Origin: an uncultured Clostridia bacterium | GTDB taxonomy: Bacteria > Bacillota > Clostridia > Christensenellales > Borkfalkiaceae | Direction of reading: 5' to 3' | Length of the DNA stretch: 64,000 bases | Assembly: GCA_934254725.1 (NCBI GenBank) | Contig: CAKQLR010000003.1 | Coordinates: forward strand, 18,754 to 82,753 | Shown: positions 12,039-43,488 of the stretch, in pieces | How positions within the stretch are numbered: the first letter of the stretch is position 1 | How the letters are laid out: every line of letters starts with the position of its first letter | Notes under the pieces: model-generated | The model's database searches: none | Told to the model about the DNA's origin: nothing | What the model saw: the letters and a program-made list of their open reading frames with translations, nothing else | Position numbers and translations under genes: made by a program

Positions 12039-13664
12039 ATGAACGCAAAACAGTTTTTCTCATACATAAGATATACGTTATTCCCGATAGCAGTTTACGG
12101 TATAGCCATAGGTCTTGCCACGGGAACGATAATATGGGGCTACTCCCTCGCCGCGGAATTCATAGGCGAACAGAGCGCAAACATCTATGCGTTTTTCAGG
12201 GCAAATCCGTCGTTTATCCCCTTGCTTTTTCTGGGGCTTCTGGCGCTTGCGCTTGTTTCTTACTTTGTAATAAAGTTCGTGCCGGAAGTAACGGGCAGCG
12301 GCGTTCCGTATTCGGAAGGCGTTATGCGCGGACTTTTGCCCTTGAGATGGGTGATAGTTCTCCCCGCCATGATAATCAACAGCTTTATTTCGTTTATCGC
12401 GGGCATTCCTCTCGGCAGCGAAGGGCCGAGCGTACTCATCGGTTCATGCATCGGCGCGGGTTCCAACGACGTAACCATCAACGGAAACAAACCCCGTCTT
12501 GCCTGGAAAAGACAGTCCATAACGGGCGGCGCTTCCGCGGCTTTCGCGGTGGCGTTCAACGCTCCCCTCGCAGGCATAATCTTCGCGCTCGAAGAAATAC
12601 ACAAACGTTTTTCCCCGATGATACTTTTGCCCGCTTCGGCTTCGGTAATAGTCGCCTCGATAACGGCTAACGGGCTTACCGCGCTTACGGGGCACGGCAT
12701 AAGCGAAGTTATCTTCACTGAGTTCGAAATGCTTGCCGAACCAACATTAAGGGAATTACCATTCCTCGCCCTCCTCGGCGTGATGATGGGCTTGTTTTCC
12801 GTTTTCTTCAGCCTGCTTTACAACGCGGTCGCGAGCGGAATGAATAAAATAAAAGTGCCAGTAATAGTAAAAATTATTTCGGCGTTTCTGCTTACCGGCG
12901 TAGCTGGCTTGCTCGTTGCGGATTCCATAGGCTCCGGCGGCAACCTGATAAGAAAAATAGCCCTTATGAAAACGGAGTGGAAGTTGCTTCTACTCATACT
13001 CGCTATAAAGCTCGTGCTAGTAACATTCTGTTCAAACGGCGGTGTGACGGGCGGCTTGTTCTTCCCCATTCTTGCGATAGGCGCGATATTCGGCGGGCTG
13101 ACCGCAAAGCTGTTTATCCTTATGGGAATGAGCGATAAATACTATAATATGATAGTGCTTATAAGCATGTGCGCGTTTTTGGGCGGAGTTATGCGCTCAC
13201 CCATAACCGCGGTGGTGCTTATAATAGAAATGACCGATACGCTTACGGCGGATCTTTGGGCAACCTGTTTTGTAATTCTGCTCGCTTATTTCATCATAGA
13301 ATTATTCAACGTAGAGCCGGTTTACGATAAACTTCTCGGCAACATTCTCGGCAAGCGCAACGCGGGCAAAAAGCGCAAGCTTGTAGTTTATGAAATAGAA
13401 ATAGAAGAAAATTCTTTTGCCGTGGGCAGAAGCGTGCGCGATATTCTCTGGCCGGCAAGCGCGCTCGTTATAAAGGTGAAAGAAACGGACGACCAGGGCA
13501 ACATAATCTACCGCATGGATAAGGACGGCGAACGCAAAATTCACGCAGGCGATAAGTTCGTTATTCAGGCGGAAACCGCAGAACCGAAAGAAATTTATAA
13601 ACAACTCTGCTATATAGTAAAACGCCCGGAATATTTCCACAATAATCCCGAGTTTAATGATTGA
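12039..13664 (+). CDS. ClC family voltage-gated chloride channel/antiporter with a C-terminal TrkA-C domain
   Basis: GSGVP, GSEGPSV and GGLFFP selectivity-filter-type motifs, followed by a soluble ~100 aa C-terminal domain. Confidence 0.85.
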   Translation: MNAKQFFSYIRYTLFPIAVYGIAIGLATGTIIWGYSLAAEFIGEQSANIYAFFRANPSFIPLLFLGLLALALVSYFVIKFVPEVTGSGVPYSEGVMRGLLPLRWVIVLPAMIINSFISFIAGIPLGSEGPSVLIGSCIGAGSNDVTINGNKPRLAWKRQSITGGASAAFAVAFNAPLAGIIFALEEIHKRFSPMILLPASASVIVASITANGLTALTGHGISEVIFTEFEMLAEPTLRELPFLALLGVMMGLFSVFFSLLYNAVASGMNKIKVPVIVKIISAFLLTGVAGLLVADSIGSGGNLIRKIALMKTEWKLLLLILAIKLVLVTFCSNGGVTGGLFFPILAIGAIFGGLTAKLFILMGMSDKYYNMIVLISMCAFLGGVMRSPITAVVLIIEMTDTLTADLWATCFVILLAYFIIELFNVEPVYDKLLGNILGKRNAGKKRKLVVYEIEIEENSFAVGRSVRDILWPASALVIKVKETDDQGNIIYRMDKDGERKIHAGDKFVIQAETAEPKEIYKQLCYIVKRPEYFHNNPEFND

Positions 13665-13720
13665 CAAAAGAAAAGTCCCGTTTTTCGCGCATTAACGCGC
13701 GTTCAGGGCAAGGAGCTACC

Positions 13721-15160
13721 ATGACTTTTTTAAAGAAAATCGAAAAGTTCTGCTCTACCGAAATGTTTATTTTGATAGTCGCTTTTCTGACTTATGTACT
13801 TCACGTCGTCGCGGCAGACATCGTAGGGATACTTCTCTACGGCGTGCTTGCGGGGGTGGGTTTCGTTCTTCTTAAAGACTTCCGCCCGTCGTTCACGTTT
13901 ATGGCTTCCGCTATATTTATAGTATCCATGCAAAACAGCCCCGGATACACGAACGGCAACAATTATTATACCACCCCGACGGTTCTTGCTCTTGCGGGCG
14001 TTGCGGTGTTCTTCGTTCTTGCGGGGCTTGCGTTCAGAACCGTACGTTACAGAAGCAACCTTAGAACGGGTAAGCTGTATGTTCCGTTCGCGCTCCTCGC
14101 CGTTTCGCTTTTACTTGCCGGCGTGGGTCAGGAATTCTATAAAGACAGCGTTACCCTTGCGGCTCTACTCACCGTGAGCGGCGTAGGGCTGTACTTCCTT
14201 TTCAGCGGAGCGTTCGATTGCTTTGACTGCATACTCGATTATATCACTTCTCTTTTCTCTATACTTGCCGTGCTTATAGCCGTGCAGATACTCACCGTTC
14301 CCGTCTATCGCATAATACAAGGAACGTTCGACAAAATGCTTGACAACTGGAAAGGCAACCTTATAATCGGCTGGGGAGTAAACAACCTTGCCGGGGAAAT
14401 GATTATATTCCTTATCCCGTTTATGTTCAGAAAGCTTCAGCAGGGCGATCATATAATCGTCTGGTCGGCAATGATAGTATTCTGTACGATGATGGTGTTC
14501 TTTACGTTCTGTCGTGCGGCGATGCTTTTCGGCTTCCCGATGATTTTTGCACTCGGGGTGTATACTCTTGTTAAAAATCCCGAAAGAAAGAAAATAGCCT
14601 TAACGGTGGGCATATTCTTCGGCGTTCTGGCTTTAGCGTTGCTTATAGTCTGCTTGTGCACCGACTTCAACACCATATTCAAATATTTCAAAACGGCTTT
14701 CAAAAAAGACGATAAATTCGCGTGGAGCAGCCGCGACGTTATATGGGCAAAACGTTGGAATTACTTCCTTGAAAAACCCTTCTTCGGTGTTGGTTTCGCA
14801 AGGGAATTCCACGATACGGGCAAAATCAACCAAGGGCACTCCATTTACATGTGGCTTGCGCATAATTTCGTTATGGAGATAGTCGGCGGCGCGGGGCTGC
14901 TCGGAATTATCTCCACGCTGTTCCTCTGCGTAAGCACTGCCATAAGACTTATAAAGAACAAGTTCGAAGGCAAACTGTTCTTGTGCGCCACCATTCTCGT
15001 CTACGCGTTGATTTCGCTGTTCGATACGGTCTACTTCAACTCCTACTGTCACATTTACATCATATTTGCGCTTGTAGTTGCGGAAAAGCTAATCGAACGC
15101 AAAAAGGCAGAAGATACTCAACCCTGCGACTGCGAGCAGGCGGAACAACCGAACGCATAA
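13721..15160 (+). CDS. O-antigen ligase (Wzy_C) family membrane protein
   Basis: Polytopic protein with the WLAHNFVMEIVGGAGLLG loop motif. The ORF track starts at a TTG at 13661; I prefer the ATG at 13721 (MTFLKK), which has AAGGAG 6 nt upstream. Confidence 0.7.
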   Translation: MTFLKKIEKFCSTEMFILIVAFLTYVLHVVAADIVGILLYGVLAGVGFVLLKDFRPSFTFMASAIFIVSMQNSPGYTNGNNYYTTPTVLALAGVAVFFVLAGLAFRTVRYRSNLRTGKLYVPFALLAVSLLLAGVGQEFYKDSVTLAALLTVSGVGLYFLFSGAFDCFDCILDYITSLFSILAVLIAVQILTVPVYRIIQGTFDKMLDNWKGNLIIGWGVNNLAGEMIIFLIPFMFRKLQQGDHIIVWSAMIVFCTMMVFFTFCRAAMLFGFPMIFALGVYTLVKNPERKKIALTVGIFFGVLALALLIVCLCTDFNTIFKYFKTAFKKDDKFAWSSRDVIWAKRWNYFLEKPFFGVGFAREFHDTGKINQGHSIYMWLAHNFVMEIVGGAGLLGIISTLFLCVSTAIRLIKNKFEGKLFLCATILVYALISLFDTVYFNSYCHIYIIFALVVAEKLIERKKAEDTQPCDCEQAEQPNA

Positions 15161-29422: not shown

Positions 29423-30124
29423 TTACATAAACCAGTTCCACACGTGCCAGGGTTCAAAAGAGCCTGCAGCAATACACATGGAAGCATACCCGATTATAAA
29501 TGCGGCTAAGAAGCAAACAAGCCCTATAATCGCAACTAATTTCAATTTGAATGCAGTCTTTTTGGAAATCGCGGGGTGCATGGAAATCGACGGATAAGCT
29601 CTGTCGTTTGCCGTATTTTTACACCATCTTACATAGACCTTTCCCCACTGTTTTGCGTACATAAACAAGTAAAACGTTCCGATTGCGGAAAGCACCGAAA
29701 GACCGATGCAGGCAATACCTAAAAGTAACGCAGGGAAATACGGGATATACGGAATAAGCTCTGCGATATTAACGGTTGTAATCAGGCAGCCGCCGGTAAC
29801 GAGACACGCGACTGAAAAACCGCCGAGCGCAATAACCGACGCCCATATCAACACATACACCATCGCAGCGGGAACAGACAAAAACACCAGACCGGTAACT
29901 TTAACGCCTTTCTTTAATTTATTTTCGGGTTCGGCTTTCGGCAAATATTCTTTTGCTATTTCCTTCGGCGAAGAAAGTTTCTTTACAATTTCTTCTTCCG
30001 TCAACCCCTCCTCGAGTTTAAATTCAAAATGACCTTCGAATTCCGAAATAATATCGTCTATTTCGTCAACATTGTTTAACTTAAGCTCTTTTCTTAATTC
30101 GTCAAGATATTCTTGCTTTGTCAT
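29423..30124 (-). CDS. DUF1700 domain membrane protein (PadR-associated)
   Basis: The N-terminus MTKQEYLDELRKELK...EEIVKKLSSPKEIAKEY is typical of DUF1700. The C-terminal part is multi-TM. It lies 1 nt downstream of padR. Confidence 0.75.
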   Translation of the reverse strand: MTKQEYLDELRKELKLNNVDEIDDIISEFEGHFEFKLEEGLTEEEIVKKLSSPKEIAKEYLPKAEPENKLKKGVKVTGLVFLSVPAAMVYVLIWASVIALGGFSVACLVTGGCLITTVNIAELIPYIPYFPALLLGIACIGLSVLSAIGTFYLFMYAKQWGKVYVRWCKNTANDRAYPSISMHPAISKKTAFKLKLVAIIGLVCFLAAFIIGYASMCIAAGSFEPWHVWNWFM

Positions 30125-30125
30125 A

Positions 30126-30440
30126 TTATTTTTCTCCTTGTATTATTTTATTTACGATTGCCGTAAAACTCAGCCACTCTGCCGAGTCGTTTTCGAATTC
30201 TTCTTTCCCGAGTTGCGTTAACGAATAATATTTTCTCGGCGGTCCGCCGCTGTCCTCGGATAAATACGTTTTAACAAGCCCGTCGGCTTTTAATTTTCTT
30301 AAAATCGGGTACACCGTGCCGTCCGATATATCTATCTGATTTGAAATATATTCGGAAAGTTCGTATCCGTACATATCCTTTTTACTGAGTATTGCCAGAA
30401 TACACAGTTCGATAACGCCTTTTTTATATTGAATATTCAC
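30126..30440 (-). CDS. PadR family transcriptional regulator
   Basis: 104 aa with LCILAIL...MYGYEL...GTVYPILRKLKADGLV, the PadR wHTH signature. It uses a GTG start with AAGGTGG upstream. Confidence 0.9.
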   Translation of the reverse strand: MNIQYKKGVIELCILAILSKKDMYGYELSEYISNQIDISDGTVYPILRKLKADGLVKTYLSEDSGGPPRKYYSLTQLGKEEFENDSAEWLSFTAIVNKIIQGEK

Positions 30441-30475: not shown

Positions 30476-30506
30476 ATATTATTCAATAGTTGACGGTTTG
30501 TCAACT
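30476..30506 (-). promoter_or_regulatory. padR promoter with an overlapping perfect palindrome (candidate PadR operator)
   Basis: On the minus strand: TTGACA (30504-30499), 17 nt, TAATAT (30481-30476). The palindrome AGTTGAC-N5-GTCAACT at 30488-30506 covers the -35 box and spacer. Confidence 0.6.
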
Positions 30507-30591
30507 GTTTTTATCAAAAAAATAAAAAAAGTTTAAAAATTTTGAATTCAAGCCTGTACAGCTTCGGATTTTTAGCTCATTATAACAACAA

Positions 30592-30618
30592 AAGCAGCCA
30601 CATTCAATGTGACTGCTT
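30592..30618 (-). terminator. Intrinsic terminator ending the locus A operon
   Basis: AGCAGCCACAT-TCA-ATGTGACTGCT with one mismatch, followed on the minus strand by TTTTGTTGTT. It lies 60 nt downstream of the 761-aa gene stop. Confidence 0.65.
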
Positions 30619-30679
30619 TTATAAAAAACGCATCAAGCGCTTTCTGTGAAAAACGAATTATTATATCGTTTAAAGCTTT

Positions 30680-32965
30680 TTATTTGAATTTTCTTGACTT
30701 TTTAAAACCGTAAACGGCAAAGCCCAGGAATACCAGACATACAAAAGACTGAGCGATTGCAATACTGCCCGAACAACCCGAAGAAGATTCCGAAGGTTTA
30801 TCACCAGTGCTGTTTCCGCCGCCCACGATATTCATTTCGACACTGCAATCGAAACCGCCGTATTCGAACTTAACCGTGCACGTACCCGAAGCAGTATTAT
30901 CGAACCCGCTGAAATACACGTCGTTATGAGCCAACGAAATTTCGCCTATTCTGCCGCTCTGGAAAGTCAGTTTTAAAGAACCGTCTCTCAAGTCGATAAT
31001 TTCGCCCACGTTGTATTCTGTTTTAGGGCTGTCTTTAATTTCGATGGCAAGCAGAACGTCCTGCAATACGTTGATCGTAAAATCGCATTCGCAACCTTCG
31101 TATTTTATCTTCAGGGTTTGTTCTCCTGCGTCGGTACTGTAATAGCCCTCGTAACTTACGGACTCGTCTCCCAAATCCACTATAACGAAATCTACGCTGT
31201 TACCTTTTGCCGTGCCCGCCTCAAACCAGGCTTTAAGCTTGCTACCGCTTAAATCCAGGCTTTCATAGCCCGTGTAATACTTTTTATCGGCAGTTTCGAT
31301 TACCTCGATCGCTCTTATATAATCGGAACACTCCAAATCCACATCACACGTGTATGTGTTGCCGTTCGCCCCAAAGGATAACTCAACCGTATTCTTACCT
31401 ATTTGCGAAAGCTTTTCGAGCGAAGTAACGCAATCGCTCATCGAAACGTACGTCAGAGAGTTGTCGGCAAATTCAACTTTTAATCTTCCGCCGCTGAGAT
31501 CCAATTTTTTATTATACAAAAACTTTTCCGCAGCGGGCATATCGGAAACGGAAACCTTGCTCACCTGAGCGGCTTCGCGTACGGTGATAGCGACGGGGAC
31601 GTCTTTTTTATTAAGATTACCGTCCGTGGCTGTTACCGTAACATTATAAGTACCAGTGCTGTCGGGGGTAAAAGAAATACCCGATTCGTTAAGCGATACG
31701 TCCGAACCGTCTTGTTTTTTAACGGTATACGATAAATCCGCGCCGTATCCGACCGCTCCCGATTTAGCCGTTACTACGGATAAATCCACAGGGAATCCCA
31801 CTACGCCGCTATTCAGCGTGTCGGGTACCGTAACCACGGGTTCGCCTTGATATTTATAGACGGAAGAAACTTTAAGCCCGGAAAGGTACGCGCCGCCGTC
31901 CGCCTTATCGTTGTCGCTGGCATCGGTAATACGAACATATATCACTTTTGAAGAGTCCAAAAACTTTGTAACATCTAAAGTATATATTTGTTTATCCGCA
32001 GACCTCGAACCGCAAAGTATATCCGTCCACAACGCCAAAGAAGTGTACGCGGCAGGTTCTTCGCTTGTAATCTTGTTGCCGGTAGAAACGGACAATCTGA
32101 AAGTTCCCCAGACGTCTGCTTTCAACAACAAATTAGAAAAAACGTAGTTATCGGTATCTTCTTCGGGGACGCTGAATTTGTATACTCCGTAGGGTGCATC
32201 TATCAAAGCGTAAGAGCAGTGCGACAAATTGTTGCCCACTTCGCCGTTGCTTATGTAGGTGTTATACATAACGCCCTTATAAGTGTCGGTAGTTTTTTCG
32301 CCGTAAATACGGTAAGCGTCGTCTTTTAAATCTTTGACGGTTGCGGCAAAACCCGTTTCTTTTTCAGTATAAACTTCAGGGAAAAATTCGCTTTCCGCTA
32401 CAGAACCGTCGTGGAAGAACCTAAGACGGTCTACAACCTGCAACGAACCGCCTATCTTCGGGTTGCTTCTCATTCTGAAAAACAGCCTGTCCGTTTCGGG
32501 TTTCCCGTTCAGATACTCCTCGGCAAAGACGTCGATGGTCGTATAAATGTGTTTAACGCCCGCCATCGGATCGAAAACTTTATAATTCTCAAAATCGTCG
32601 GTCGTGGAAATTAACATTACGCCGTCGCCGCTGAAAACGCCGTCTATATAAAAATGTTTTGTGTCTTTCGGGATATCCACGGCGTAGTCTATATAATTTT
32701 CTACGTTCCCGGTCTGTCCGCCTACCAAACGAATTTTAAACGTGGGGTTCGACATAATGGAAGAACCGAGTTCGTCATAGAAGTCCGCCCCTTCATAAAT
32801 CTGACAGTCGTAAAAACTTTTAACGGTCATATCTATAACGGTGCCCGTTTTAATTTCAGCCGCCGCGATTGTATTTCCGAAAAGAGAAAAAGCAGTTCCC
32901 GTTACCGCGGCGAACAACACCGCGGTAAGTAAACTTAAAATTATTTTTTTTAATGACTTAATCAT
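30680..32965 (-). CDS. Cell-surface protein: signal peptide, two N-terminal beta-sandwich modules, Ig-like repeats, and a Gly-Cys C-terminal anchor signal
   Basis: 761 aa. It has three ~85-aa repeats resembling bacterial Ig-like group 3 domains (Y..G..LDLSG..L...), each ending in C-D/S-V/F. The tail is SGCSGSIAIAQSFVCLVFLGFAVYGFKKSRKFK. Confidence 0.85.
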   Translation of the reverse strand: MIKSLKKIILSLLTAVLFAAVTGTAFSLFGNTIAAAEIKTGTVIDMTVKSFYDCQIYEGADFYDELGSSIMSNPTFKIRLVGGQTGNVENYIDYAVDIPKDTKHFYIDGVFSGDGVMLISTTDDFENYKVFDPMAGVKHIYTTIDVFAEEYLNGKPETDRLFFRMRSNPKIGGSLQVVDRLRFFHDGSVAESEFFPEVYTEKETGFAATVKDLKDDAYRIYGEKTTDTYKGVMYNTYISNGEVGNNLSHCSYALIDAPYGVYKFSVPEEDTDNYVFSNLLLKADVWGTFRLSVSTGNKITSEEPAAYTSLALWTDILCGSRSADKQIYTLDVTKFLDSSKVIYVRITDASDNDKADGGAYLSGLKVSSVYKYQGEPVVTVPDTLNSGVVGFPVDLSVVTAKSGAVGYGADLSYTVKKQDGSDVSLNESGISFTPDSTGTYNVTVTATDGNLNKKDVPVAITVREAAQVSKVSVSDMPAAEKFLYNKKLDLSGGRLKVEFADNSLTYVSMSDCVTSLEKLSQIGKNTVELSFGANGNTYTCDVDLECSDYIRAIEVIETADKKYYTGYESLDLSGSKLKAWFEAGTAKGNSVDFVIVDLGDESVSYEGYYSTDAGEQTLKIKYEGCECDFTINVLQDVLLAIEIKDSPKTEYNVGEIIDLRDGSLKLTFQSGRIGEISLAHNDVYFSGFDNTASGTCTVKFEYGGFDCSVEMNIVGGGNSTGDKPSESSSGCSGSIAIAQSFVCLVFLGFAVYGFKKSRKFK

Positions 32966-33007: not shown

Positions 33008-34504
33008 TTAACGAGATTTTTTACGGAGCAACGTAGCCGAAAAACCTAAAACCATCAAAGCAGCCATAATGTTTACGGACATGATACTGCTTCCGCAACC
33101 GCCGTCTTCTTCATTGCCGGAGGGTTCAGTGCCGCTGCCAGTATCGCCGGTATTATCTCCGCTGTTACCGGAACTGCTGTCGTCGGGACCGGGAGCAGGT
33201 GTCTCTTCTTCTACGGTAATAGTGAGTTCTTCACTTGCAACGCCGTCGATTACAACTTTAATTTTGTAAGTTCCGGCTGCGGTATCGGTGCCTAAAGTAT
33301 ACGTTAATGCCGTATAATCTTCCACTACGGTATCGTTTACGTACCATACAACGGTAGCGGGAGTTGTGGTTGCGGGGGTGTGAGCCGCTGTAACGGTAAC
33401 AGCCGTACCTACGGTAACGGTAGTATTATCCGCGCTTAAAGATACAGCGGTGATTGTGGGATCTTCTTCTTCGTAATATCCCGTCAAAGACATGCCTATT
33501 ACCTGAGCACCGCCGCCGGAAACGCCCGTTGCGTCGGAAAATCTTACATATAAACCGCCGTTTTCGTTCAGATAGTCGGTTACGTCAATCGTGTATTCGG
33601 TTACTGCCGCGGTAAACGGGCACAAAACGAACTGCCAGTTTTCAACTCCGAAAGGATCCGGGGTGCCTTCACCGGTATAAATAGCAACGGCTGCGTCGCA
33701 CGCGAAAACAAGCTTTAATTTAGCGCCTGCGAAACCATTTTCCATATCCAACGTATTAACGCCGTCGAATTTATAGGTCAGAACGCCGCCGTGTACCTTA
33801 CCGCTGCGCGAAGCGTCGATGGGGAAGCCGCCGTCCGCATAACGAACGCCGCTCTCGAGCTGTCCGCCGACGGACATATTGCTTACAAAAAATTCTGAAT
33901 CGAAATTGCTGTTTTCGCTATCCACGCTGAATCCGACGGTATCCGTCGTATAGTAACTCGGGAAGGTTTCCCCTGCAGTAAGAATAGTTCCGTTGTGTGC
34001 AAAGTTAACGTAATCGCGCAGTTTGAAAGATTTATTGTCCGCCGAACCGGTAACTTTAATATACACGGTACCCGTGTGCTGAACGCCTTCGAGCAAGTTC
34101 GAAGTATCCGCTATCTGTAAATCCTGATCTACGCTCCATTTTTTAGAATAGCTTTCGCCGTCGGTAGAAACGGATAAAGCAACGGTATTAAAACAGCTTG
34201 ATATTTTCAATATCGTAGTATCTTCGGGAAGAAGAATTTTCCAGACTATGTAACTGTCCTCACCATTTTTTCGACCGAATCTCGTTTCGCTGTTTCCTCC
34301 GCCGTAATCGGTCAAACCGGTTTCTACATTCTCGTAAGCGTCGGTCATATTTACCTGGTCTACAACGTAAAACGCGTTTTCTCTCATATCGATTTCGGGT
34401 TTGGAGGGTGTTGCCGCCTCATCTGCAGAAACCGAAGTAACGCCGCAGAGAGCAGTTACTGCCATCGCAAAAGCGATCAATAAAGTAAGTAATTTTTTCT
34501 TCAT
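33008..34504 (-). CDS. Cell-surface protein, paralogous N-terminal modules, Ig-like domain, and a Gly-Cys C-terminal anchor signal
   Basis: 498 aa with a signal peptide (AMAVTALCGVTSVSA). YVRFSDATGVSGGGAQVIGMSL matches YVRITDASDNDKADGGAYLSGLKV in the 761-aa protein. The tail is GGCGSSIMSVNIMAALMVLGFSATLLRKKSR. Confidence 0.85.
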   Translation of the reverse strand: MKKKLLTLLIAFAMAVTALCGVTSVSADEAATPSKPEIDMRENAFYVVDQVNMTDAYENVETGLTDYGGGNSETRFGRKNGEDSYIVWKILLPEDTTILKISSCFNTVALSVSTDGESYSKKWSVDQDLQIADTSNLLEGVQHTGTVYIKVTGSADNKSFKLRDYVNFAHNGTILTAGETFPSYYTTDTVGFSVDSENSNFDSEFFVSNMSVGGQLESGVRYADGGFPIDASRSGKVHGGVLTYKFDGVNTLDMENGFAGAKLKLVFACDAAVAIYTGEGTPDPFGVENWQFVLCPFTAAVTEYTIDVTDYLNENGGLYVRFSDATGVSGGGAQVIGMSLTGYYEEEDPTITAVSLSADNTTVTVGTAVTVTAAHTPATTTPATVVWYVNDTVVEDYTALTYTLGTDTAAGTYKIKVVIDGVASEELTITVEEETPAPGPDDSSSGNSGDNTGDTGSGTEPSGNEEDGGCGSSIMSVNIMAALMVLGFSATLLRKKSR

Positions 34505-34586: not shown

Positions 34587-36257
34587 TCAGCCTTTTAAAG
34601 AAACGTTTACGTGCGGAACGTTTTCGCGTATCAGTTGGAAAAACTGTTCTGCCGTTACGATCTCTACGTCGTCGTCCAGATTTTGATACATTTCCACGGC
34701 GTCGCTGTAATCTCTGCTCCACGGATGAAGATTTACGAGAGTGTAACCTTCTATTGAACGGGGATTAACGGGGAAATTGTTGATTTTTTCCGCAATGGAA
34801 GCGCCCGTTTCGGGCTCCCACAAAGAAAGCCTGCAGGTTACGAACGGCATACCGTTCTCCGACCAATAGACGGAACCTTTTTCCGCTGCATAATAATCGC
34901 CTATCATACACTGAACGCCAAGCAATCCGGGAACACGCGAATAGTATTCGACAACGTCCTCCGTTACGCACGTATCGAGGATTTGCAGCGTCGTTAAGTC
35001 TCCGCGTTTCAAATAAGTTGCAAGTCTGCCGCAAAAATCGGACAGGTCGGGATACACCGAAGGATTTATATAACCTTGACCGGAAACGGCAGCCACGAGG
35101 TAATCGCCCGCGGAACCTATCTGGTTGTAAATATATCTTTGTAAAGCGGGCTGTATATCTATCGCCGAGGGCGAAATATTCCATCCCATCGGGAAATCCG
35201 CGCGTTCGGCGGCAAAATATTTTTTACTTGCATCGGGAGACAACGTATTGGAAAGCGCCTGTATATTATCCCCGTCGGAACATACGATGCACACGTAATG
35301 CTTGTTTTCTACTTCTTTGCGCTCGTATTGAACCATTTGTTTTAACTGTTTTACGCCGAAAAACTCGGTACAGCTAAAAACGGAAAGGTTTGCGCTCCAG
35401 TCGGAGGCGATAGTAAAATTGCCGTTCATAGAACTCACGTTTACGTGCGAAGTTTCGTCTATCGGGCCCCAACCGAAAACAGGGCTGTCGGTCTTCGTCC
35501 ATTCGTGCACTTCGCCGCGGAGTTGCAACGCTTCCAAAGTTTCTTTGCTTTGATAAAAACTGTAGTATTTGCAGGCGATCGCGTAATCGCACATCATCTC
35601 CACGCCTCCGGCAAGCTGACACAGACCGGAATTGTTTAATTTGTCCTTATAATTTTCGAAACACCATCTGTCGTTTTTATCGGTAACGTCAAGTTTTTTC
35701 GTCAATCCCAAATCTATATACTTTTGCTCTACGGACGCGTCTACAGGGATCCACCCCTCTACTCCGCATATTGTTACGGCCACGTTTTTGGACTCGCCGT
35801 TTTGCGAACGGTTATATAGAATATAGCCTGCGTTTTCGCCGAAACGCGTTTTGTAGTCCTCTACCATCTGCGCTATCGTTACGTTCTCGGTCGTTAAGCC
35901 GTATTCTTTGCAAATTTCGTTAAGCCACATCGAATGATGATAGCTTCCCGAGCAATAATATTCTGCCGCGGTCTGAGCAAAAAGCCCCTGAATCGCAGCT
36001 CCCGCAAGGATATCGCTGCCGCTCAAACCTCTTTCCACGTTGTAACCGAAAACTTTTAAATGACGGTTTTCGTTCATTTTAAAACTTTCGAAATACGTAA
36101 AATCGTCATCTGCGAGGTTAAGTTCATAAGGATCCTGCTCGGCAGGTTCGGTTGAGTCGGATGGTCCCGAAGAGTCGTTTTCTTTGCACGCGACCATTCC
36201 GAAAAGCAAGCAAAGGATCAGCAAAAAGGGAAATATTTTTATAAGCTTTTCTTTCAT
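34587..36257 (-). CDS. GxGYxYP family lipoprotein (putative glycoside hydrolase of an uncharacterised family)
   Basis: It contains the family-naming motif SGQGYINPSVYP and the lipobox LLFGMVAC. I trimmed the ORF (..36281) to MKEKLIK at 36257 to avoid overlap with the upstream gene. Confidence 0.75.
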   Translation of the reverse strand: MKEKLIKIFPFLLILCLLFGMVACKENDSSGPSDSTEPAEQDPYELNLADDDFTYFESFKMNENRHLKVFGYNVERGLSGSDILAGAAIQGLFAQTAAEYYCSGSYHHSMWLNEICKEYGLTTENVTIAQMVEDYKTRFGENAGYILYNRSQNGESKNVAVTICGVEGWIPVDASVEQKYIDLGLTKKLDVTDKNDRWCFENYKDKLNNSGLCQLAGGVEMMCDYAIACKYYSFYQSKETLEALQLRGEVHEWTKTDSPVFGWGPIDETSHVNVSSMNGNFTIASDWSANLSVFSCTEFFGVKQLKQMVQYERKEVENKHYVCIVCSDGDNIQALSNTLSPDASKKYFAAERADFPMGWNISPSAIDIQPALQRYIYNQIGSAGDYLVAAVSGQGYINPSVYPDLSDFCGRLATYLKRGDLTTLQILDTCVTEDVVEYYSRVPGLLGVQCMIGDYYAAEKGSVYWSENGMPFVTCRLSLWEPETGASIAEKINNFPVNPRSIEGYTLVNLHPWSRDYSDAVEMYQNLDDDVEIVTAEQFFQLIRENVPHVNVSLKG

Positions 36258-36261
36258 ATAA

Positions 36262-37914
36262 TCAGTTCTCCGTACAATCAACGTCTACCTGAGGTACGTT
36301 TGCGCGAATCATTTTAAAGAAATTATCCGCAGTTACGACGATTGTATTTTCATCGAGATTTTTAACGAGTTCCACAACGTCTGTGTACGACGTAGACCAG
36401 GGATGCACGTTGATTACGCTGTATCCGTTAATGGAAGTCGGATCCTTTTCGCACACATTTACCTGCGCGGCGATATTAGCGCCCGTCGTTTCCCAAAGAG
36501 AGAAGCGGCACGTAACGAACGGCATTCCGTTTTTCCAATAAACCGAACCGTGTTTAGCGGCATATTTCCAACCGGACATAACCGCGCAACCGTACAGACC
36601 TTCGATTTTTGAATAATATTCGAAAGCGTCGACGTCGATGGCTTCTTCCAAAATCTGCAAACTGTGGCAATCCGCCCTCTTAAGATAGTTACCGAGACGC
36701 TCCGTGAACAGCTTGAGCGCTTCCTGCGGGTAAGACGACGGATACATATAACCCGCACCCGAAACCGAAGCTACGAAATAATCATTCTCATCCATATTGC
36801 GATAGAGATAATTCATAATGCTCGGCTGCAAATCGACACAACTTACGTTAAGCGTCCAACCCATTTTGAAATTTTCTCTGTCTGCAAGATAATAAGCCGC
36901 GCTGAACGGGAAAGTATTGGAAACCGCCTGTATGTTATCTCCGTCGCTCATCATAATGCAAACGTAATGTTTGCCTTTTTGCGCAGTTACTTCTTTATGT
37001 AGGCTTTTCTGCGTGAAGGAAGTCCCCCACGCATCCGAACATAAAACGGTCATGTTGGCGCTCGTGTCCGAAGCGACGGTAAACTCTGCGTTATTCGACG
37101 CGATGGTTACGTCCTGACCTTCGGTGGTGGGTCCCCAACCGAATATAGGCGAATCGTCATCCGTCCAGCTCTGCACTCTGTTTCTGAAAGCAAGCGTCGA
37201 AATATCCGTATCTACCTGATAAAATCCGTAATATTTCCCGGCTATCCAATAATCGCGCGGGTACCATAAATCGGGCGAAAGCTGAAAGAGCGCGTCCGTA
37301 GCGAACTTATCTTTATAATCGTAATAACAGTCGGATTCCGTCATTTCGGTTACGTCCATAAGTTTTTCCATGTTGTAACCTTTTTTGCTGGAAAACTGCC
37401 TTTCCTGAGTAGTGTCCACGGGGATTGCGTTAAAAATACCCGCAAGGCTTGTCGCCACGTTTACGGATTCGGGGTTCTTAGCTTTATCGTACAAAATGTA
37501 TTTGGCGTCCGCGCCGAATTTTTCTTTATACGCGTTAACCATCGAATCGAACGTAACGGTTTCGGTGGTAACCCCGTACGTATCTTTCAGATCCTGCAAC
37601 CAAAGTTCGTTTGCGGAAAAAGTTAAATTATAATAAGTGATCTCGTCCCTGTTGAACAATCCCTGTATGGCGATAGCGGTAAACGCCTGAGCAAAATTGT
37701 CGTCCTCCCCCTTCCACACGAGCAATTTATTATCGCCGTTCATTTTAAAATTTTTGTAATAATCGTACTCTACGGTTGTCGGAGTTTCACCCGAAGATGA
37801 GTCGTCGGACGGTTTGTCCGATTGATCTCCGTTATTTTGTCCGCAACCTGCAAAACACGCAAAAACAAGCATTATCGCAAGAAAAAATGTAAAAAACTTC
37901 TTCATCTTTTTCAT
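36262..37914 (-). CDS. GxGYxYP family lipoprotein (paralog)
   Basis: SGAGYMYPSSYP motif and lipobox FACFAGC. Long shared blocks with the downstream paralog include HYVCIMMSDGDNIQAVSNT and GMPFVTCRFSLWE. Confidence 0.75.
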   Translation of the reverse strand: MKKMKKFFTFFLAIMLVFACFAGCGQNNGDQSDKPSDDSSSGETPTTVEYDYYKNFKMNGDNKLLVWKGEDDNFAQAFTAIAIQGLFNRDEITYYNLTFSANELWLQDLKDTYGVTTETVTFDSMVNAYKEKFGADAKYILYDKAKNPESVNVATSLAGIFNAIPVDTTQERQFSSKKGYNMEKLMDVTEMTESDCYYDYKDKFATDALFQLSPDLWYPRDYWIAGKYYGFYQVDTDISTLAFRNRVQSWTDDDSPIFGWGPTTEGQDVTIASNNAEFTVASDTSANMTVLCSDAWGTSFTQKSLHKEVTAQKGKHYVCIMMSDGDNIQAVSNTFPFSAAYYLADRENFKMGWTLNVSCVDLQPSIMNYLYRNMDENDYFVASVSGAGYMYPSSYPQEALKLFTERLGNYLKRADCHSLQILEEAIDVDAFEYYSKIEGLYGCAVMSGWKYAAKHGSVYWKNGMPFVTCRFSLWETTGANIAAQVNVCEKDPTSINGYSVINVHPWSTSYTDVVELVKNLDENTIVVTADNFFKMIRANVPQVDVDCTEN

Positions 37915-37936: not shown

Positions 37937-38812
37937 TTATTTAATTCCGGAAATACTCATGGACGCCAGGAAATATTTCTGGCATACAAAATACGTAGCG
38001 ACCACGGGAACCGTAATGGATATAAGAGCCGCCGCGCGAAGATAAGAGTCTCCGCTGCCCTCGAACTGAGGATAAAAGCTCATAAGTTTCAACTGAATTA
38101 CAAATTTGGACGGGTCGTGCGTAACAATCAACGGCCAAAGATACTCGTTCCATTTAGCGGTAAAGGTCATAATGCAAAACGTAAGTATGACCGAACGGCA
38201 CATGGGAAAAGCAATCTGGAAAATTTTTCTCAACTCGCCCGCGCCGTCTATATCTGCGGCTTCGAGGCACGCGTCCGGTATCTGATGCATAAACTGACGG
38301 AACATAAACACGCCGAATACGTTGATAAATCCGGGAAGAAATACGCCCGTCAATGTCTCGGTAACGCCCAAGCCGTCAACGATGATATAAATCGGAATGA
38401 GCAATACTTCGCCCGGGACCATCATCGAAGCCAATATAAGCCAGAACCAGACGTCCCTTCCTTTAAATCTCAGTTTGCCGAAGCAATAGCCGAGAACAAA
38501 CGCAAACACCAGACTTACGACGAGACTTACGACAACTACAACTATACTGTTGAAAAAGCCTTGCCATAAATCGCCTACTCTGAAAGCTTCCGCGTAGTTG
38601 GAAAAATGAATGCCGCCTTGCGGCCACCAATAAATCTTTCCGGGTTTTCCTATAAAATCGAGCGAAGTCAGCGACGACGCCAACTGCAACCAATACGGAA
38701 AAACCAGCAAAAAGCCCATAAACGCCATAAATAAGACGCAAAAAGTAACGACAAGCGCGTTAACGACCTTTTTTCTCTTACTTACAAGAGGTTTCAATTC
38801 GGTATTATTCAT
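37937..38812 (-). CDS. Carbohydrate ABC transporter permease (CUT1 family, MalG-like)
   Basis: 6-TM protein with the EAA loop EAADIDGAGELRKIFQIAFP. Confidence 0.9.
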   Translation of the reverse strand: MNNTELKPLVSKRKKVVNALVVTFCVLFMAFMGFLLVFPYWLQLASSLTSLDFIGKPGKIYWWPQGGIHFSNYAEAFRVGDLWQGFFNSIVVVVVSLVVSLVFAFVLGYCFGKLRFKGRDVWFWLILASMMVPGEVLLIPIYIIVDGLGVTETLTGVFLPGFINVFGVFMFRQFMHQIPDACLEAADIDGAGELRKIFQIAFPMCRSVILTFCIMTFTAKWNEYLWPLIVTHDPSKFVIQLKLMSFYPQFEGSGDSYLRAAALISITVPVVATYFVCQKYFLASMSISGIK

Positions 38813-39728
38813 ACGAAACCTCCTTATTGTTGAGCTTCATCTGTATGACAGAAAATATCATGACTACTAAAAACAATACCATGGCATAAGCGCTCGCCAC
38901 GCCCATTTTGGAGCGCTCGAAGGCAAGATAGTAAACGTACAGCACCGAAGACTGCGTTTTGCTTCCGCCGCTGGTAATAAGTTGCATGGGACCTATTACC
39001 TTAAAGCCGTTGATTATAGAATTGACAAGATTTAACGTAATGGTATTTGAAATCAAAGGGAGCGTAATGTAAATATACGCCTTTAATTTGCTGTCCGTTT
39101 CGAGGCTTGCGGCTTCAAGGTAAGTATCGGGTACGCCGATAATAGCCGCATAATAAATAAGCAACCCGCCGCTGAACCCTAAAAATACGGACGTAAACAT
39201 TAAAGCAAAAAGCGCATATTTTTCTTCGTTAAAATAGTTTATCGGGTTATCCAACGCGCCTATCGACATAAGCAGCGAATTAACTATGCCCGATTCGCTG
39301 CCGTCGAAAAGCAACTGAATAATGTTGCTCCCGACAACTGCTGAAACAAGTGCCGGCCAATACAGCACGGCAAGAAAAATCTTTTTACCGCGGGGTATTC
39401 TGGTAAGCATAAAGCCGAGTAACAACCCGAAAAAATTGCTCCCTATAGTGGTAAAAAACGCCCACTTGACGGATACCCAGAGCGACGACCAGAATTCGGC
39501 GTCGTACAGTTCGTGGTTTTTATCGAAAATTCTTATGTAATTATCAAAAGTAAAGCGAGTAATGTTGGCAACGCTCGTCTTCATATTCGTAAAGCTTATA
39601 ACTATAGCGAATATGAAGGCGGCGGCAAAAAACACAAGCCAGAAAATCAAGGGTATCGCCATCAGGGAATACGCCTTTATTTCATTGCGATATTTAAATT
39701 TGACAGAATTATTTTTTTTATTAGTCAC
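38805..39728 (-). CDS. Carbohydrate ABC transporter permease (CUT1 family, MalF-like)
   Basis: EAA loop EAASLETDSKLKAYIYITLP. The ORF track starts at a TTG at 39761, inside the SBP gene. I prefer the GTG at 39728, immediately after the SBP stop. The start is uncertain. Confidence 0.85.
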   Translation of the reverse strand: MTNKKNNSVKFKYRNEIKAYSLMAIPLIFWLVFFAAAFIFAIVISFTNMKTSVANITRFTFDNYIRIFDKNHELYDAEFWSSLWVSVKWAFFTTIGSNFFGLLLGFMLTRIPRGKKIFLAVLYWPALVSAVVGSNIIQLLFDGSESGIVNSLLMSIGALDNPINYFNEEKYALFALMFTSVFLGFSGGLLIYYAAIIGVPDTYLEAASLETDSKLKAYIYITLPLISNTITLNLVNSIINGFKVIGPMQLITSGGSKTQSSVLYVYYLAFERSKMGVASAYAMVLFLVVMIFSVIQMKLNNKEVSYE

Positions 39729-39729
39729 T

Positions 39730-41127
39730 TTAAGAATACAACTCCTTGAGATCTTTGGCAAGAGTCGTCTGAATTTTATCCAAGGTCTTAGCTTCCCCGT
39801 TCTTGAGCCATGCGGTCATAAGTCCGCTAAGCTCTTTCTGCGTCTGGCTCCATATGCCCGTTCCGGGACGAACCACCGCTTTTTCCAACGACGCGCCGAA
39901 CATCTGCCAGCTTTCGCTGTTATAATAATCGCTTTCCGCAAACGCCGCTTTTAAAGCGGGCATCTGATAAGAACCCTCTGCATACGCAAGCATGGAAGTC
40001 TGATCTTTTATCAAATATTTCATAAAGTCCAAAGCCAAAGCCTTGTTTTTGCTGCGACGGCTCATAGCCAAAGAATAAAGCCCCGCGCAGGATTTCGCTT
40101 CGTAACCGTCTTTAAGCGTTATAAGGTCCGCCCACCCCGCATTAAATATGCTTTCTACGGTAGGATCTTTACCGAGCTGATCATACTTTGCAATTTTCCA
40201 GCAACCTTCTTCGATAAATAAAACTTTACCTTCTTCGAACTTTGCTTCTTCAAACGTAGAAGATACAACACCGGTAGCGCCGAGTTGTTTTACTATCGTC
40301 TCAAGCTCTGCATTTGCAGCCTTGTCTGCAGGATATTCGTCGTTGCAAATAGTAACTTTGGAGAAATCGTCGTTCATAACAGAACCGCCGAGTCTTGCAA
40401 GCATGGAAACGTACTGCATAGAAGCAACGGACGCGTATTCGTTACCGGAAGGAATTGTCCACGCGCCTATCTGCTTTCCTGTCGTTCTGTTGTAATCGTT
40501 AACCTGTTTGCACCACCACAACATGGAATATTCTTCCTGCTCGCTGCCTAATTTTGTGGGAACACAGGCGTCGATATCGGTATATTGAATTCCGTTAGTG
40601 TCCAGAACGTTTTTCATCAGAACACGGTTATAAGCCAAACCGAACGTATTTGCCGCATAAGGAAGCGCATAAACGTCGCCGCCGTAATATCCCGTGTTAT
40701 ATAAAGAGGAATACAACGTATCTTTTACTTCGCTTAACAATTCGGGAGCAATACTGCTGAGGTCTGCAAGTGCCGGATCTCCGAAATAATAAGCAAGTAC
40801 CTGAATGTACACGCTATCCAACAATAATAAGTCGGGTTCGTTCTTTTTGCCGACCACCATAGCGTAGCTGGTGTAAAAATTATCGGCAGGCTGCGGCGTT
40901 AAGTTGATGGTAACGCCTTCGTGCTCTTGTTCGTAAGCTTTCTTGGCTTGCTTAGCGGCTTCGAACTGTGCGTCCGCGCCCGGCCACCATACGGTAATAG
41001 ACCCGCTTAACGGAGCGTCGGGGTTAACACTGTCGCCGCTGTTGTCCGATCCGCCGCATGCGCAGAAGGCGCATGCGAGCACTGCTATGAGTACACCTGT
41101 CACAAATTTTTTCAAAAATCCAGACAT
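39730..41127 (-). CDS. ABC transporter extracellular solute-binding lipoprotein (family 1)
   Basis: 465 aa with a lipobox (LACAFCACG). It is the first gene of the operon, with GGAG 9 nt upstream of the ATG. Confidence 0.85.
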   Translation of the reverse strand: MSGFLKKFVTGVLIAVLACAFCACGGSDNSGDSVNPDAPLSGSITVWWPGADAQFEAAKQAKKAYEQEHEGVTINLTPQPADNFYTSYAMVVGKKNEPDLLLLDSVYIQVLAYYFGDPALADLSSIAPELLSEVKDTLYSSLYNTGYYGGDVYALPYAANTFGLAYNRVLMKNVLDTNGIQYTDIDACVPTKLGSEQEEYSMLWWCKQVNDYNRTTGKQIGAWTIPSGNEYASVASMQYVSMLARLGGSVMNDDFSKVTICNDEYPADKAANAELETIVKQLGATGVVSSTFEEAKFEEGKVLFIEEGCWKIAKYDQLGKDPTVESIFNAGWADLITLKDGYEAKSCAGLYSLAMSRRSKNKALALDFMKYLIKDQTSMLAYAEGSYQMPALKAAFAESDYYNSESWQMFGASLEKAVVRPGTGIWSQTQKELSGLMTAWLKNGEAKTLDKIQTTLAKDLKELYS

Positions 41128-41157
41128 AAAAATTCACTCCTAAATTTTTTTTCTTCT

Positions 41158-41185
41158 ATTATACACCCCCCCCCCGCATTGTCAA
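41158..41185 (-). promoter_or_regulatory. Consensus sigma-A promoter of locus A with a G10 tract in the spacer
   Basis: The minus strand reads TTGACA-atgcGGGGGGGGGGtg-TATAAT. The -35 box is at 41185-41180, the 16-nt spacer at 41179-41164 and the -10 box at 41163-41158. The ATG at 41127 lies 30 nt downstream of the -10 box. Confidence 0.75.
41166..41175. repeat. Homopolymeric C10/G10 tract
   Basis: Counted directly: C at 41166-41175 on the plus strand. I saw no other G/C homopolymer approaching this length while reading the window. Confidence 0.95.
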
Positions 41186-41468
41186 CACAAAAGACACACA
41201 AATTACAAATTTTTTTCCGTGGGGGCAGTTTTTTTGAGGAATTATAAGGAATATTAGCCGAAAGGGCAACAAGAAAAATGCGGAAAAATTTACAAAAAAT
41301 TGTTTTTTGCAGAGTACGGATACAAAAATTTCAGTATGTATCAACCCTGCGAATCAACTGCCGGCACGAGGTTTTCTCTGCATACAACTGCCTGAAAAAT
41401 ATAAAAAAATCCGAGCGAAACGCCTCCGAACAGAGACCCGAATCGCACGGATTTTTATGATAAGATTT

Positions 41469-41888
41469 TTATTTACAACAATTTTTACTCGGTAAAATTC
41501 TTGTTGAGGGGTTTGTATCGTCGGCGGTTTTACCCGCTATCACATCGTCATAATGAGCGACTTTTTTCGTGATATAGTCAAAAATTTCCTGAGCTTCTTT
41601 CAATTTTTGCCTGGCTAAAGCAAGTTGCCTGTTCATGATTTCTCTGCGTTCTGCAAGCGTTTCGTCGCCCTGCAAACATAAATCGCCGTAGCGCTTTATA
41701 TCTTCGATGGACATTCCGCAACCTTTCAGACATTTTATGCCCATAAGCCAGTTGACCGATTCCTCATCGAACACACGGCGGTTTCCGCTATCGCGTTTTA
41801 CGGGTAAAAGGTTAAGGTTGGTATAATAACGAATGGTATGTTCGCTCATTCCCATAATTTCGGCTATTTGTTTTACGGTATATTTCAT
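41469..41888 (-). CDS. MerR family transcriptional regulator
   Basis: YTVKQIAEIMGMSEHTIRYYTNLNLLP HTH motif and a C-terminal coiled coil. Confidence 0.9.
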   Translation of the reverse strand: MKYTVKQIAEIMGMSEHTIRYYTNLNLLPVKRDSGNRRVFDEESVNWLMGIKCLKGCGMSIEDIKRYGDLCLQGDETLAERREIMNRQLALARQKLKEAQEIFDYITKKVAHYDDVIAGKTADDTNPSTRILPSKNCCK

Positions 41889-41919
41889 AAAAAATCTCCT
41901 GAAAAAATAGTAAAAACCC

Positions 41920-41950
41920 TTGACTTCGAGTAACTCTAACTTATTATACT
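41920..41950 (+). promoter_or_regulatory. MerR-type promoter with a 19-bp spacer, driving the aldo/keto reductase gene
   Basis: TTGACT (41920-41925), a 19-nt spacer and TATACT (41945-41950). A partial dyad ACT-TCG-AGT sits in the spacer. The promoter is divergent from merR. Confidence 0.6.
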
Positions 41951-41984
41951 GTATTTACCTGAAAAAATCAAAGGGAGAACTGTT

Positions 41985-42833
41985 ATGAAAACGATTATAT
42001 TTAACAACGGTGTAGAAATGCCAATGCTCGGATTCGGAACTTTTCAGATTACCGAGCCGAAACAATGCGAAAAAAGTGTAATTACCGCGATAAATGCAGG
42101 TTACAGATTAATCGATACGGCGGAAGCTTACGGAAACGAAAAATACGTCGGTAACGCAATTAAAAACTGCGGAATTAACAGAAAAGAACTCTTTATAACT
42201 ACAAAACTTAACTTCAACCATTTTGAATCGGATGCGGCAAGAGAAACTCTCAATAAGTCATTAGAAAATCTGCAAACGGACTATATCGACCTTGTTTTAT
42301 TGCACTGGGGCTTCGGAAATCGTTACGCCGCATGGCGCGTTCTGGAAGAGTTTTACGAGCAAGAAAAAATACGCGCGATAGGCGTATCGAATTTCGAACC
42401 GGATATGCTCATCGACTTGATAAACTTCAACAAGGTGAAACCTGCCGTAAATCAGACAGAGACGCATTTGTATTGCCAGCGTAAAGCCGTGCACGAATGG
42501 GAAAACAAATACGGGATCGCACATCAGGCATACGCGCCGCTCGGACAGGGTCGGGCAAACGAAATGTTTAATGAAAAAGCCGTAGTTCGTATTGCCGAAA
42601 AATACGGAAAAACTCCCGCGCAGGTTTTACTCCGCTATCAGATAGAAAACGGCGTTATCGTTATACCTAAATCCGTTCACGAAAACAGAATTAAAGAAAA
42701 TATAGACGTTTTCGATTTTTCGCTTGCCAAAGAAGAAATTAACGAACTCGCCGCGCTCGATAAAAACGAGCCGATGATAGGCAAGCCCGAACAGCCGGAT
42801 TTTACGGAATTTGCAATGACGTGGATTAAATAA
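41985..42833 (+). CDS. Aldo/keto reductase (2,5-diketo-D-gluconate reductase-like)
   Basis: 282 aa with GFGTFQ, DTAEAYGNE and LLHW motifs. Confidence 0.9.
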   Translation: MKTIIFNNGVEMPMLGFGTFQITEPKQCEKSVITAINAGYRLIDTAEAYGNEKYVGNAIKNCGINRKELFITTKLNFNHFESDAARETLNKSLENLQTDYIDLVLLHWGFGNRYAAWRVLEEFYEQEKIRAIGVSNFEPDMLIDLINFNKVKPAVNQTETHLYCQRKAVHEWENKYGIAHQAYAPLGQGRANEMFNEKAVVRIAEKYGKTPAQVLLRYQIENGVIVIPKSVHENRIKENIDVFDFSLAKEEINELAALDKNEPMIGKPEQPDFTEFAMTWIK

Positions 42834-43390: not shown

Positions 43391-43488
43391 GGATAATTTC
43401 TCCTTTTCGCAATCTTCGACATACTTATTATATTATAGTTTCTACTGTTTGTCAATACCGGATTAAAAATATCAATTTAACAAAAAAA

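Follow-up and report, generated by a model that had tools for sequence, protein, structure and literature searches.

An uncultured gut commensal of the Clostridia carries an operon for carbohydrate uptake and surface proteins that is preceded by a perfect consensus promoter whose spacer contains a G tract of variable length. A spacer-length rheostat driven by slipped-strand mispairing, of the porA/fetA/hif/vlp type, is regarded as the best explanation of this arrangement, and as a probable one. On the minus strand of the analysed DNA stretch (the window, 64 kb in length), positions 41185-41158 read TTGACA-ATGC-G10-TG-TATAAT with a spacer of 16 nt (see Table 1); in public contigs of the same species the tract spans G9 to G12 while the hexamers are unchanged in all of them.

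Promoter architecture and the operon downstream

Rereading of the sequence and a promoter scan, in which the hexamers scored 12/12 against the consensus, bore out the promoter layout and the 16-nt spacer described in an earlier inspection of the letters alone (hereafter the sequence-only reading). Haplotypes differ in the spacer base preceding the C, which is G in ATGC and A in ATAC; an extended -10 element is absent, because the TG abuts TATAAT rather than being one base away. The -10 hexamer is followed by AGAAG, an A8 run (41152-41145), TTT, the ribosome-binding site (RBS) AGGAG (41141-41137), 9 nt, and the ATG of the first operon gene at 41127, which corresponds to a promoter-to-ATG distance of 30 nt; the transcription start site (TSS) is predicted near 41151, taken as 7 nt past the -10 hexamer. 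As judged from predicted hexamers, this main promoter is the only strong promoter-like site adjoining the gene of the substrate-binding protein (SBP) and would be the one actually used. A second promoter-like site (TTGCCC-17-TATAAT, 41269-41241, minus strand; 10/12), its -35 element substituted in one haplotype, is positioned about 85 nt upstream of the main promoter and could supply tract-independent transcription.

Chance is a poor explanation for the promoter and its tract, because both the count of exact promoters and the length of the G/C run far exceed expectation: exact TTGACA-N15-19-TATAAT arrangements were observed three times in the window versus 0.03 expected from shuffles, and a first-order model predicts approximately 0.04 G/C runs of at least 10 nt in 64 kb. 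The G10 tract is the sole G/C run longer than 6 nt in the 64 kb (36 runs of length 5, three of length 6, none of lengths 7-9 and one of length 10), in agreement with the sequence-only reading, which had noticed no comparable run. No G/C run longer than 7 nt occurred in about 65 kb of loci from relatives, and a TRF scan of the window revealed no other notable simple repeat or candidate for a simple-sequence-repeat (SSR) contingency locus. The other two perfect TTGACA/TATAAT pairs are located at 43427-43455 (minus strand), upstream of a 172-aa lipoprotein without known family, and at 14340-14367 (plus strand), inside the open reading frame (ORF) 13661-15160 and upstream of a gene at 15311.

The operon comprises seven tightly packed genes (10.5 kb, 41127 to 30680) with a terminator at each end and is, by prediction, a closed transcription unit; its composition (SBP, permeases, GxGYxYP lipoproteins, two anchored proteins) matches the 10.5-kb surface-protein/ABC operon that the sequence-only reading had outlined. 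The intrinsic terminator after the MerR/NmlR-like gene, which is the same site as inverted repeat I4, is predicted to insulate the promoter from read-through, and the strong hairpin past gene 7 is the likely operon terminator. Lipoprotein signals are present in three products, the SBP and both GxGYxYP proteins; the GxGYxYP family is over-represented in gut bacteria (PMC4071793). The surface exposure claimed for the products of the last two genes is likewise supported by prediction: Both proteins contain a signal peptide, a C-terminal Gly-Cys motif, a transmembrane (TM) helix and a basic tail, and they are distant paralogues (24% identity over approximately 400 aa, E 1e-10; a PKD match of gene 7 is weak and under the Pfam cutoff). 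The predicted surface products of the operon are, thus, three lipoproteins and two proteins with signal peptide and C-terminal TM anchor.

The C-termini of the latter two (encoded at 33008-33150 and 30680-30820) exhibit the motifs GGCGSS (498-aa protein) and SSGCSGS (761-aa protein), each followed by the TM helix and the basic tail, and LPXTG is absent from both. The tail of the 498-aa protein is weakly similar to the MYXO-CTERM sorting domain TIGR03382 (14.2 bits versus a cutoff of 15.85); the Gly-Cys tails may represent a hitherto uncharacterised signal for C-terminal sorting in a lineage of Clostridia.

Inspection of the adjacent genes revealed no sugar-responsive or cognate regulator next to the operon. 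At 41469-42833, an NmlR-like MerR-family gene is arranged divergently from an aldo-keto reductase gene, and the 96 nt between them contain promoter-like sites that overlap; the pair constitutes a typical aldehyde-stress module that is unrelated to the operon. Directly downstream of the operon terminator (29423-30440), a PadR-family regulator gene is followed by that of a HAAS-domain membrane protein, and this pair has its own promoter-like sites at 30476-30607.

Table 1. Features of the promoter region and the operon in the window (two dots or a hyphen separate first and last position)
Feature	Position	Strand	Remarks
-35 hexamer TTGACA	41180..41185	(-)	same in every contig reaching that far
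Spacer ATGC-G10-TG	41164..41179	(-)	16 nt in the window, 15-18 nt in other contigs
ATGC	41179-41176	(-)	window sequence
G10 homopolymer (C10 on the + strand)	41166..41175	(-)	length-polymorphic by contig comparison
TG	41165-41164	(-)	window sequence
-10 hexamer TATAAT	41158..41163	(-)	same in all contigs
Short leader with A run, RBS and predicted TSS	41128..41157	(-)	window sequence; TSS predicted
Gene 1, SBP_bac_1 carbohydrate-type ABC substrate-binding lipoprotein	39730..41127	(-)	465 aa
Gene 2, ABC permease	38805..39662	(-)	285 aa from the ATG of other gene callers; ORF in the mechanical list runs to 39761
Gene 3, ABC permease (BPD_transp_1)	37937..38812	(-)	
Gene 4, GxGYxYP putative glycoside hydrolase, lipoprotein	36262..37914	(-)	
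Gene 5, second GxGYxYP lipoprotein	34587..36257	(-)	556 aa by other callers; reaches 36281 in the ORF list
Gene 6, secreted protein with signal peptide and unknown N-terminal domain	33008..34504	(-)	498 aa
Gene 7, secreted protein with Big_3 domains and C-terminal anchor	30680..32965	(-)	761 aa
Intrinsic terminator after the MerR/NmlR-like gene	41405..41456	(-)	-24.1 kcal/mol, z -3.47, then U7
Strong hairpin and U-rich tail past gene 7	30588..30622	(-)	region -37.8 kcal/mol, z -5.0

Length variation of the tract and distribution of the locus

The nearest named relatives of the LepA protein from the window are those of "Clostridia bacterium" MAGs (90-92% identity) and "Acidiphilium sp. CAG:727" (83%), and the window LepA is alone in its 90% cluster. 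The contigs of the species were recovered from human gut metagenomes, with Hadza in several of the names. They were gathered by the exact SBP, its 1-aa variant P0001, the variant P0008 or the MerR protein, and 65-nt flank queries exposed near-identical loci that were otherwise collapsed. Pattern scans of JGI metagenomes (ATGC, then ATRC, with variable gap) gave no match; the comparative data therefore all stem from ENA and Logan contigs.

Counted were the contigs of the same species from public metagenomes that bound the tract on both sides (n=19). Taken as upper bounds on independent observations (a single 18,098-bp contig carries two ENA analysis accession numbers, ERZ28614050 for L034 and ERZ4561632 for L037, and further contigs may come from samples that were assembled more than once), the numbers are one contig with G9 and a 15-bp spacer (ERZ27237428), 12 with G10 and 16 bp (the window and 11 others), two with G11 and 17 bp (ERR15441334, SRR25572034), and four with G12 and 18 bp (ERZ28614788, ERZ27286956, ERZ4561663, ERR7738253); one more sample has a tract of at least G11. 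The sequence-only reading had named a tract invariant across strains as evidence against its proposal; in these 19 spanning contigs the tract varies at constant hexamers.

Haplotypes can be told apart by ATGC/ATAC, by the leader run (A6, A7 or A8), by the T run of the terminator and by an upstream 59-bp indel, and in none of them is the tract ever interrupted, though substitutions and indels do occur in the leader and at the neighbouring spacer position. Between the window (G10) and contig L019 (G12), no mismatch was found in 21,653 bp, the GG in the tract being the sole difference. The window haplotype is represented by seven contigs (three with G10, four with G12) that are otherwise alike over the compared DNA; in the pair L023 (G11) and L022 (G10), one mismatch was present in 4,398 bp. 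The 64 A/T runs of at least 6 nt (14 of them at least 7 nt) in the same 21.65 kb served as a control and were all alike. The length of the leader A run (A8, A7 or A6) tracks the haplotype, and this run consequently changes slower than the G tract; it overlies the predicted TSS and could affect start-site choice or leader length. The 59-bp segment (approximately 41310-41368), which is part of the window haplotype and missing from the ATAC haplotype (L022, L023, L025, L027), holds short inverted repeats (arms of I8 and I10).

In at least four haplotypes, G10 is the commonest length (in the ATAC haplotype, seven of eight contigs). Since the same length predominates across several haplotypes, the tract lengths of different strains are not random; either the switching rate is modest, or selection or mutational bias favors G10.

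The SBP family is very small, with five proteins at E<=1e-20 among 5.8 billion, too few for judging deep conservation of the promoter; in a GTDB genome scan with the SBP, the only match listed was a 25%-identical Streptomyces protein, and no orthologous promoter was obtained. The nearest orthologous operon (L015; SBP 61% identical, same gene order) is accompanied by a divergent GntR/Peripla_BP regulator gene; its intergenic region is AT-rich, of ordinary appearance and free of G tracts. A more distant homologous locus adjoins a LacI gene. Sister species (LepA 91-93% identical) keep the Rho-LepA-HemN-HtrA synteny without the operon and its neighbours; since the operon is lacking in spite of the shared synteny, it is assigned to a variable, species-specific region. 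According to these comparisons, the tract arrangement appears to be confined to one species, without the deep conservation that would argue for selection. In the sister-species contigs L053 and L055, the whole block of 172-aa lipoprotein, aldo-keto reductase, MerR and operon is missing (compared with 26262-47912 of the window) and the gene content diverges right after HtrA; the region after HtrA is apparently an accessory-gene hot spot.

Proposed spacer-length control and rival explanations

At the sequence level, the locus shows the features of SSR promoter-spacer variation, namely an uninterrupted repeat of at least about 8 units located between -35 and -10, length variation among strains, and conserved flanks. 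Products exposed at the surface, as predicted here, are typical of such systems without belonging to their strict definition. Generally, a 17-bp spacer is optimal in sigma-70/sigma-A promoters and activity drops away from 17 bp; G/C runs of such length are indel hot spots via slipped-strand mispairing. In the proposed mechanism, the sigma-A-type promoter that would drive the seven-gene operon (ABC sugar importer, the two putative GxGYxYP glycosidases with lipoprotein signals, and the two surface proteins with membrane anchors) contains a hypermutable G homopolymer in its spacer. Replication would add or remove G residues by slipped-strand mispairing, and because of the tract position each G gained or lost must alter the hexamer spacing, which would shift by 1 bp (G9 = 15, G10 = 16, G11 = 17 as the optimum, G12 = 18). 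Each length step would reset the promoter strength, heritably and reversibly, with a graded output that would be highest at G11, lower at G10 and G12, and low at G9; spacers of 15 bp or less and of 19 bp or more should approach the OFF state, true OFF being probably reached below 9 or above 12 G residues.

Since the perfect hexamers likely keep spacers of 16-18 bp active, amplitude variation (a rheostat) is probably a better description than clean ON/OFF switching. The interpretation put forward in the sequence-only reading is supported, the proposed switch being for the same reason closer to a volume control than to an ON/OFF element. By analogy with the spacer tracts described below, operon expression would follow spacer length; the length presumably changes within clones at a high rate, and we infer that the tract arrangement is selected. 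A more far-reaching scenario is that the repressor control of the orthologue (GntR/LacI-type) was replaced by a constitutive consensus promoter set only by the poly-G tract, i.e. a contingency locus in a commensal Firmicute; this is conceivable, with the doubts prevailing.

The length differences could also originate from sequencing or assembly, with one fixed true length and with G9-G12 calls and contig breaks caused by polymerase or Illumina stutter and signal failure. Illumina chemistry fails and reads degrade at G tracts, known as the "G's end" effect (PMC9187656); indeed, five assemblies break at the tract, eight contig ends are situated within 12 nt of it, and most contigs are low-coverage metagenome assemblies (e.g. 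cov 4-10 in their names). One contig begins at ATGC-G10 and another stops at ATGCGGG, recurring in three samples, and three Logan samples are split with partner ends of G12/G9, G11/G11 and G11/G10. These breaks are suggestive and fit a de Bruijn graph branch from mixed lengths, and equally Illumina failure at the G tract. However, most assemblies run straight across the tract, no A/T homopolymer differs in the 21.65 kb, and four contigs of one haplotype agree on G12 and three on G10 across assembler styles; each of the two lengths was obtained from contigs of different naming styles (NODE/scaffold for metaSPAdes, k141 for MEGAHIT, Logan or the window), and an independently repeated consensus error of +2 is unlikely. 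The agreement of the length calls across three assemblers is less readily explained by an artefact, which is, as the origin of the variation altogether, considered distinctly improbable; the assembly error named as a caveat in the sequence-only reading is, in view of this recurrence and the 64 constant A/T runs, unlikely to be the sole cause.

A mutable tract might nevertheless be incidental, its length being of little consequence or not selected, possibly because another promoter or regulator dominates or because spacers of 16-18 bp are near-equal in output. This would be in line with the predominance of G10 (12/19), observed lengths that stay within 15-18 bp, the promoter-like site upstream at 41269-41241 and the occurrence in one species only; it is rather unlikely in view of the strong depletion of G/C runs elsewhere (none of 7-9 nt in the 64 kb, none above 7 nt in the 65 kb of relatives), of a tract that stays uninterrupted in all haplotypes despite nearby substitutions and indels and is placed exactly at the one position where length matters, and of a cognate regulator that, unlike in the orthologue, is not adjacent. 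Very improbable is an action of the G run by structure or bound factor (as operator, G-quadruplex, leader RNA fold or target of the neighbouring MerR protein), although a MerR-family gene is located directly upstream and a C5 run about 45 nt upstream could pair with the G run. MerR-type promoters have a spacer of 19-20 bp containing a dyad, in contrast to the 15-18 bp without dyad observed here, and the NmlR-like regulator is paired divergently with the aldo-keto reductase and separated from the operon by the strong terminator; MerR control was rejected on the grounds of spacer length, missing dyad and terminator position. Folding of the leader gave no advantage over shuffled sequences (z -1.45), by which a read-through leader pairing C5 with the G run was rejected as well; the Rfam search of the whole window returned tRNA only, leaving the leader without match, and a canonical quadruplex needs four G blocks, in contrast to the single run of G10-12. 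An invertible promoter as in C. difficile or Bacteroides is effectively refuted: The intergenic region does lie between AT-rich imperfect inverted repeats (I1, with arms of 20 nt that are 80% complementary and separated by 317 nt), but these are weak and of low complexity, no recombinase gene is present nearby, and all of approximately 25 contigs have the same orientation.

Known repeat-controlled loci and biological meaning

Promoter-spacer tracts of Neisseria were reportedly described by van der Ende in 1995 and by Carson in 2000. They include the poly-G tract of porA, which is subject to spacer variation, and the poly-C tracts of fetA/frpB and opc, that of fetA being positioned between -10 and -35 (summarised in PMC5320596). 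The Neisseria porA, fetA and opc promoters resemble the present one in the strain-variable G/C homopolymer of about 9-14 nt between -35 and -10 and in their surface products; one-base changes alter the spacing and, hence, the transcription level of the Neisseria genes, whereas for the locus considered here such a length effect is a prediction. They differ in that they control single outer-membrane protein genes of Gram-negative pathogens, in contrast to the seven-gene operon of an uncultured gut Clostridia commensal with both hexamers in perfect consensus.

Simple repeats are also found in the hifA/hifB promoter of Haemophilus influenzae (TA repeat) and in the promoter spacer of Mycoplasma hyorhinis vlp (poly-A). 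Both systems share with the proposed rheostat a repeat within the promoter spacer that results in graded or ON/OFF transcription of surface structures, and vlp in addition encodes surface lipoproteins in the Firmicutes-related Mollicutes; unlike here, the repeats are TA dinucleotides or poly-A, hif is bidirectional, and neither is known to drive a nutrient-uptake operon. Theiss and Wise are said to have described, in 1997, a poly-A frameshift in the ABC-transporter lipoprotein P78 of Mycoplasma fermentans. Homopolymer phase variation thus affects the substrate-binding lipoprotein of an ABC operon in that case also, but the tract is part of the coding region (a translational switch) and not of a promoter spacer. 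SusC/SusD-type loci of Bacteroides have invertible promoters; together with those of Bacteroides capsule loci and of C. difficile cwpV/flgB/cmr, they are comparable in the stochastic, heritable control of surface- or glycan-related loci and differ in using a site-specific recombinase and inverted repeats, a combination not found at the present locus.

The hif repeat is mentioned as well in PMC9187656, a study reporting G tracts, some of them in promoter spacers, in the gut commensal Bifidobacterium breve. The sortase-dependent pilus loci of this species are similar with respect to the commensal host, the surface structures and tracts of G11/G12 type that are heterogeneous within cultures; in contrast, the characterised tracts of this actinobacterium are intragenic frameshift switches and those in promoter spacers are merely mentioned (PMC9187656). 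In Treponema pallidum, variable promoter poly-G tracts precede surface-protein genes (tpr, including tprL, and TP0126), tract length affects promoter activity, and variation occurs among and within isolates; in this spirochaete pathogen, however, transcription of tprE/G/J (subfamily II) requires 8 G residues or fewer, which is a threshold rather than a spacer optimum (PMC7864442). G/C tracts of Campylobacter are a further example of slipped-strand indel hot spots (PMC8355987).

The literature searched on phase variation in Clostridia contained invertible elements only (C. difficile), and an SSR promoter switch on a carbohydrate-uptake operon of Clostridia was not found therein, an absence that is no proof of novelty. 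For gut anaerobes generally, the literature found deals mainly with invertible promoters (Bacteroides, C. difficile), and SSR switching is documented chiefly in small-genome pathogens and recently in Bifidobacterium. The tract would represent a clean promoter-spacer dial of the SSR kind, set on an operon for carbohydrate uptake and surface proteins in an uncultured commensal of the Clostridia, with the allele diversity of the locus already visible in public metagenomes. Its main value is that of a well-supported candidate which is directly checkable in existing read archives; as a practical caution, the locus fragments assemblies, and an annotated tract length reflects one state of the population.

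The modal G10 and the rare G11 fit two readings, selection against maximal expression of a membrane/surface operon or mutational equilibrium. In the more far-reaching scenario of a contingency locus, the clustering of alleles at G10 and G12, one step on either side of the optimum, would point to selection for intermediate expression or, alternatively, to a trade-off in which bet-hedging against phage or antibody is balanced with nutrient access. If spacer-length control holds true, such loci would be minable from metagenome assemblies via contig breaks and G-tract length polymorphism, and some accessory glycan loci may run on stochastic control instead of sensing; mutation-driven heterogeneity in nutrient foraging and surface display would, in consequence, reach this group of Clostridia.
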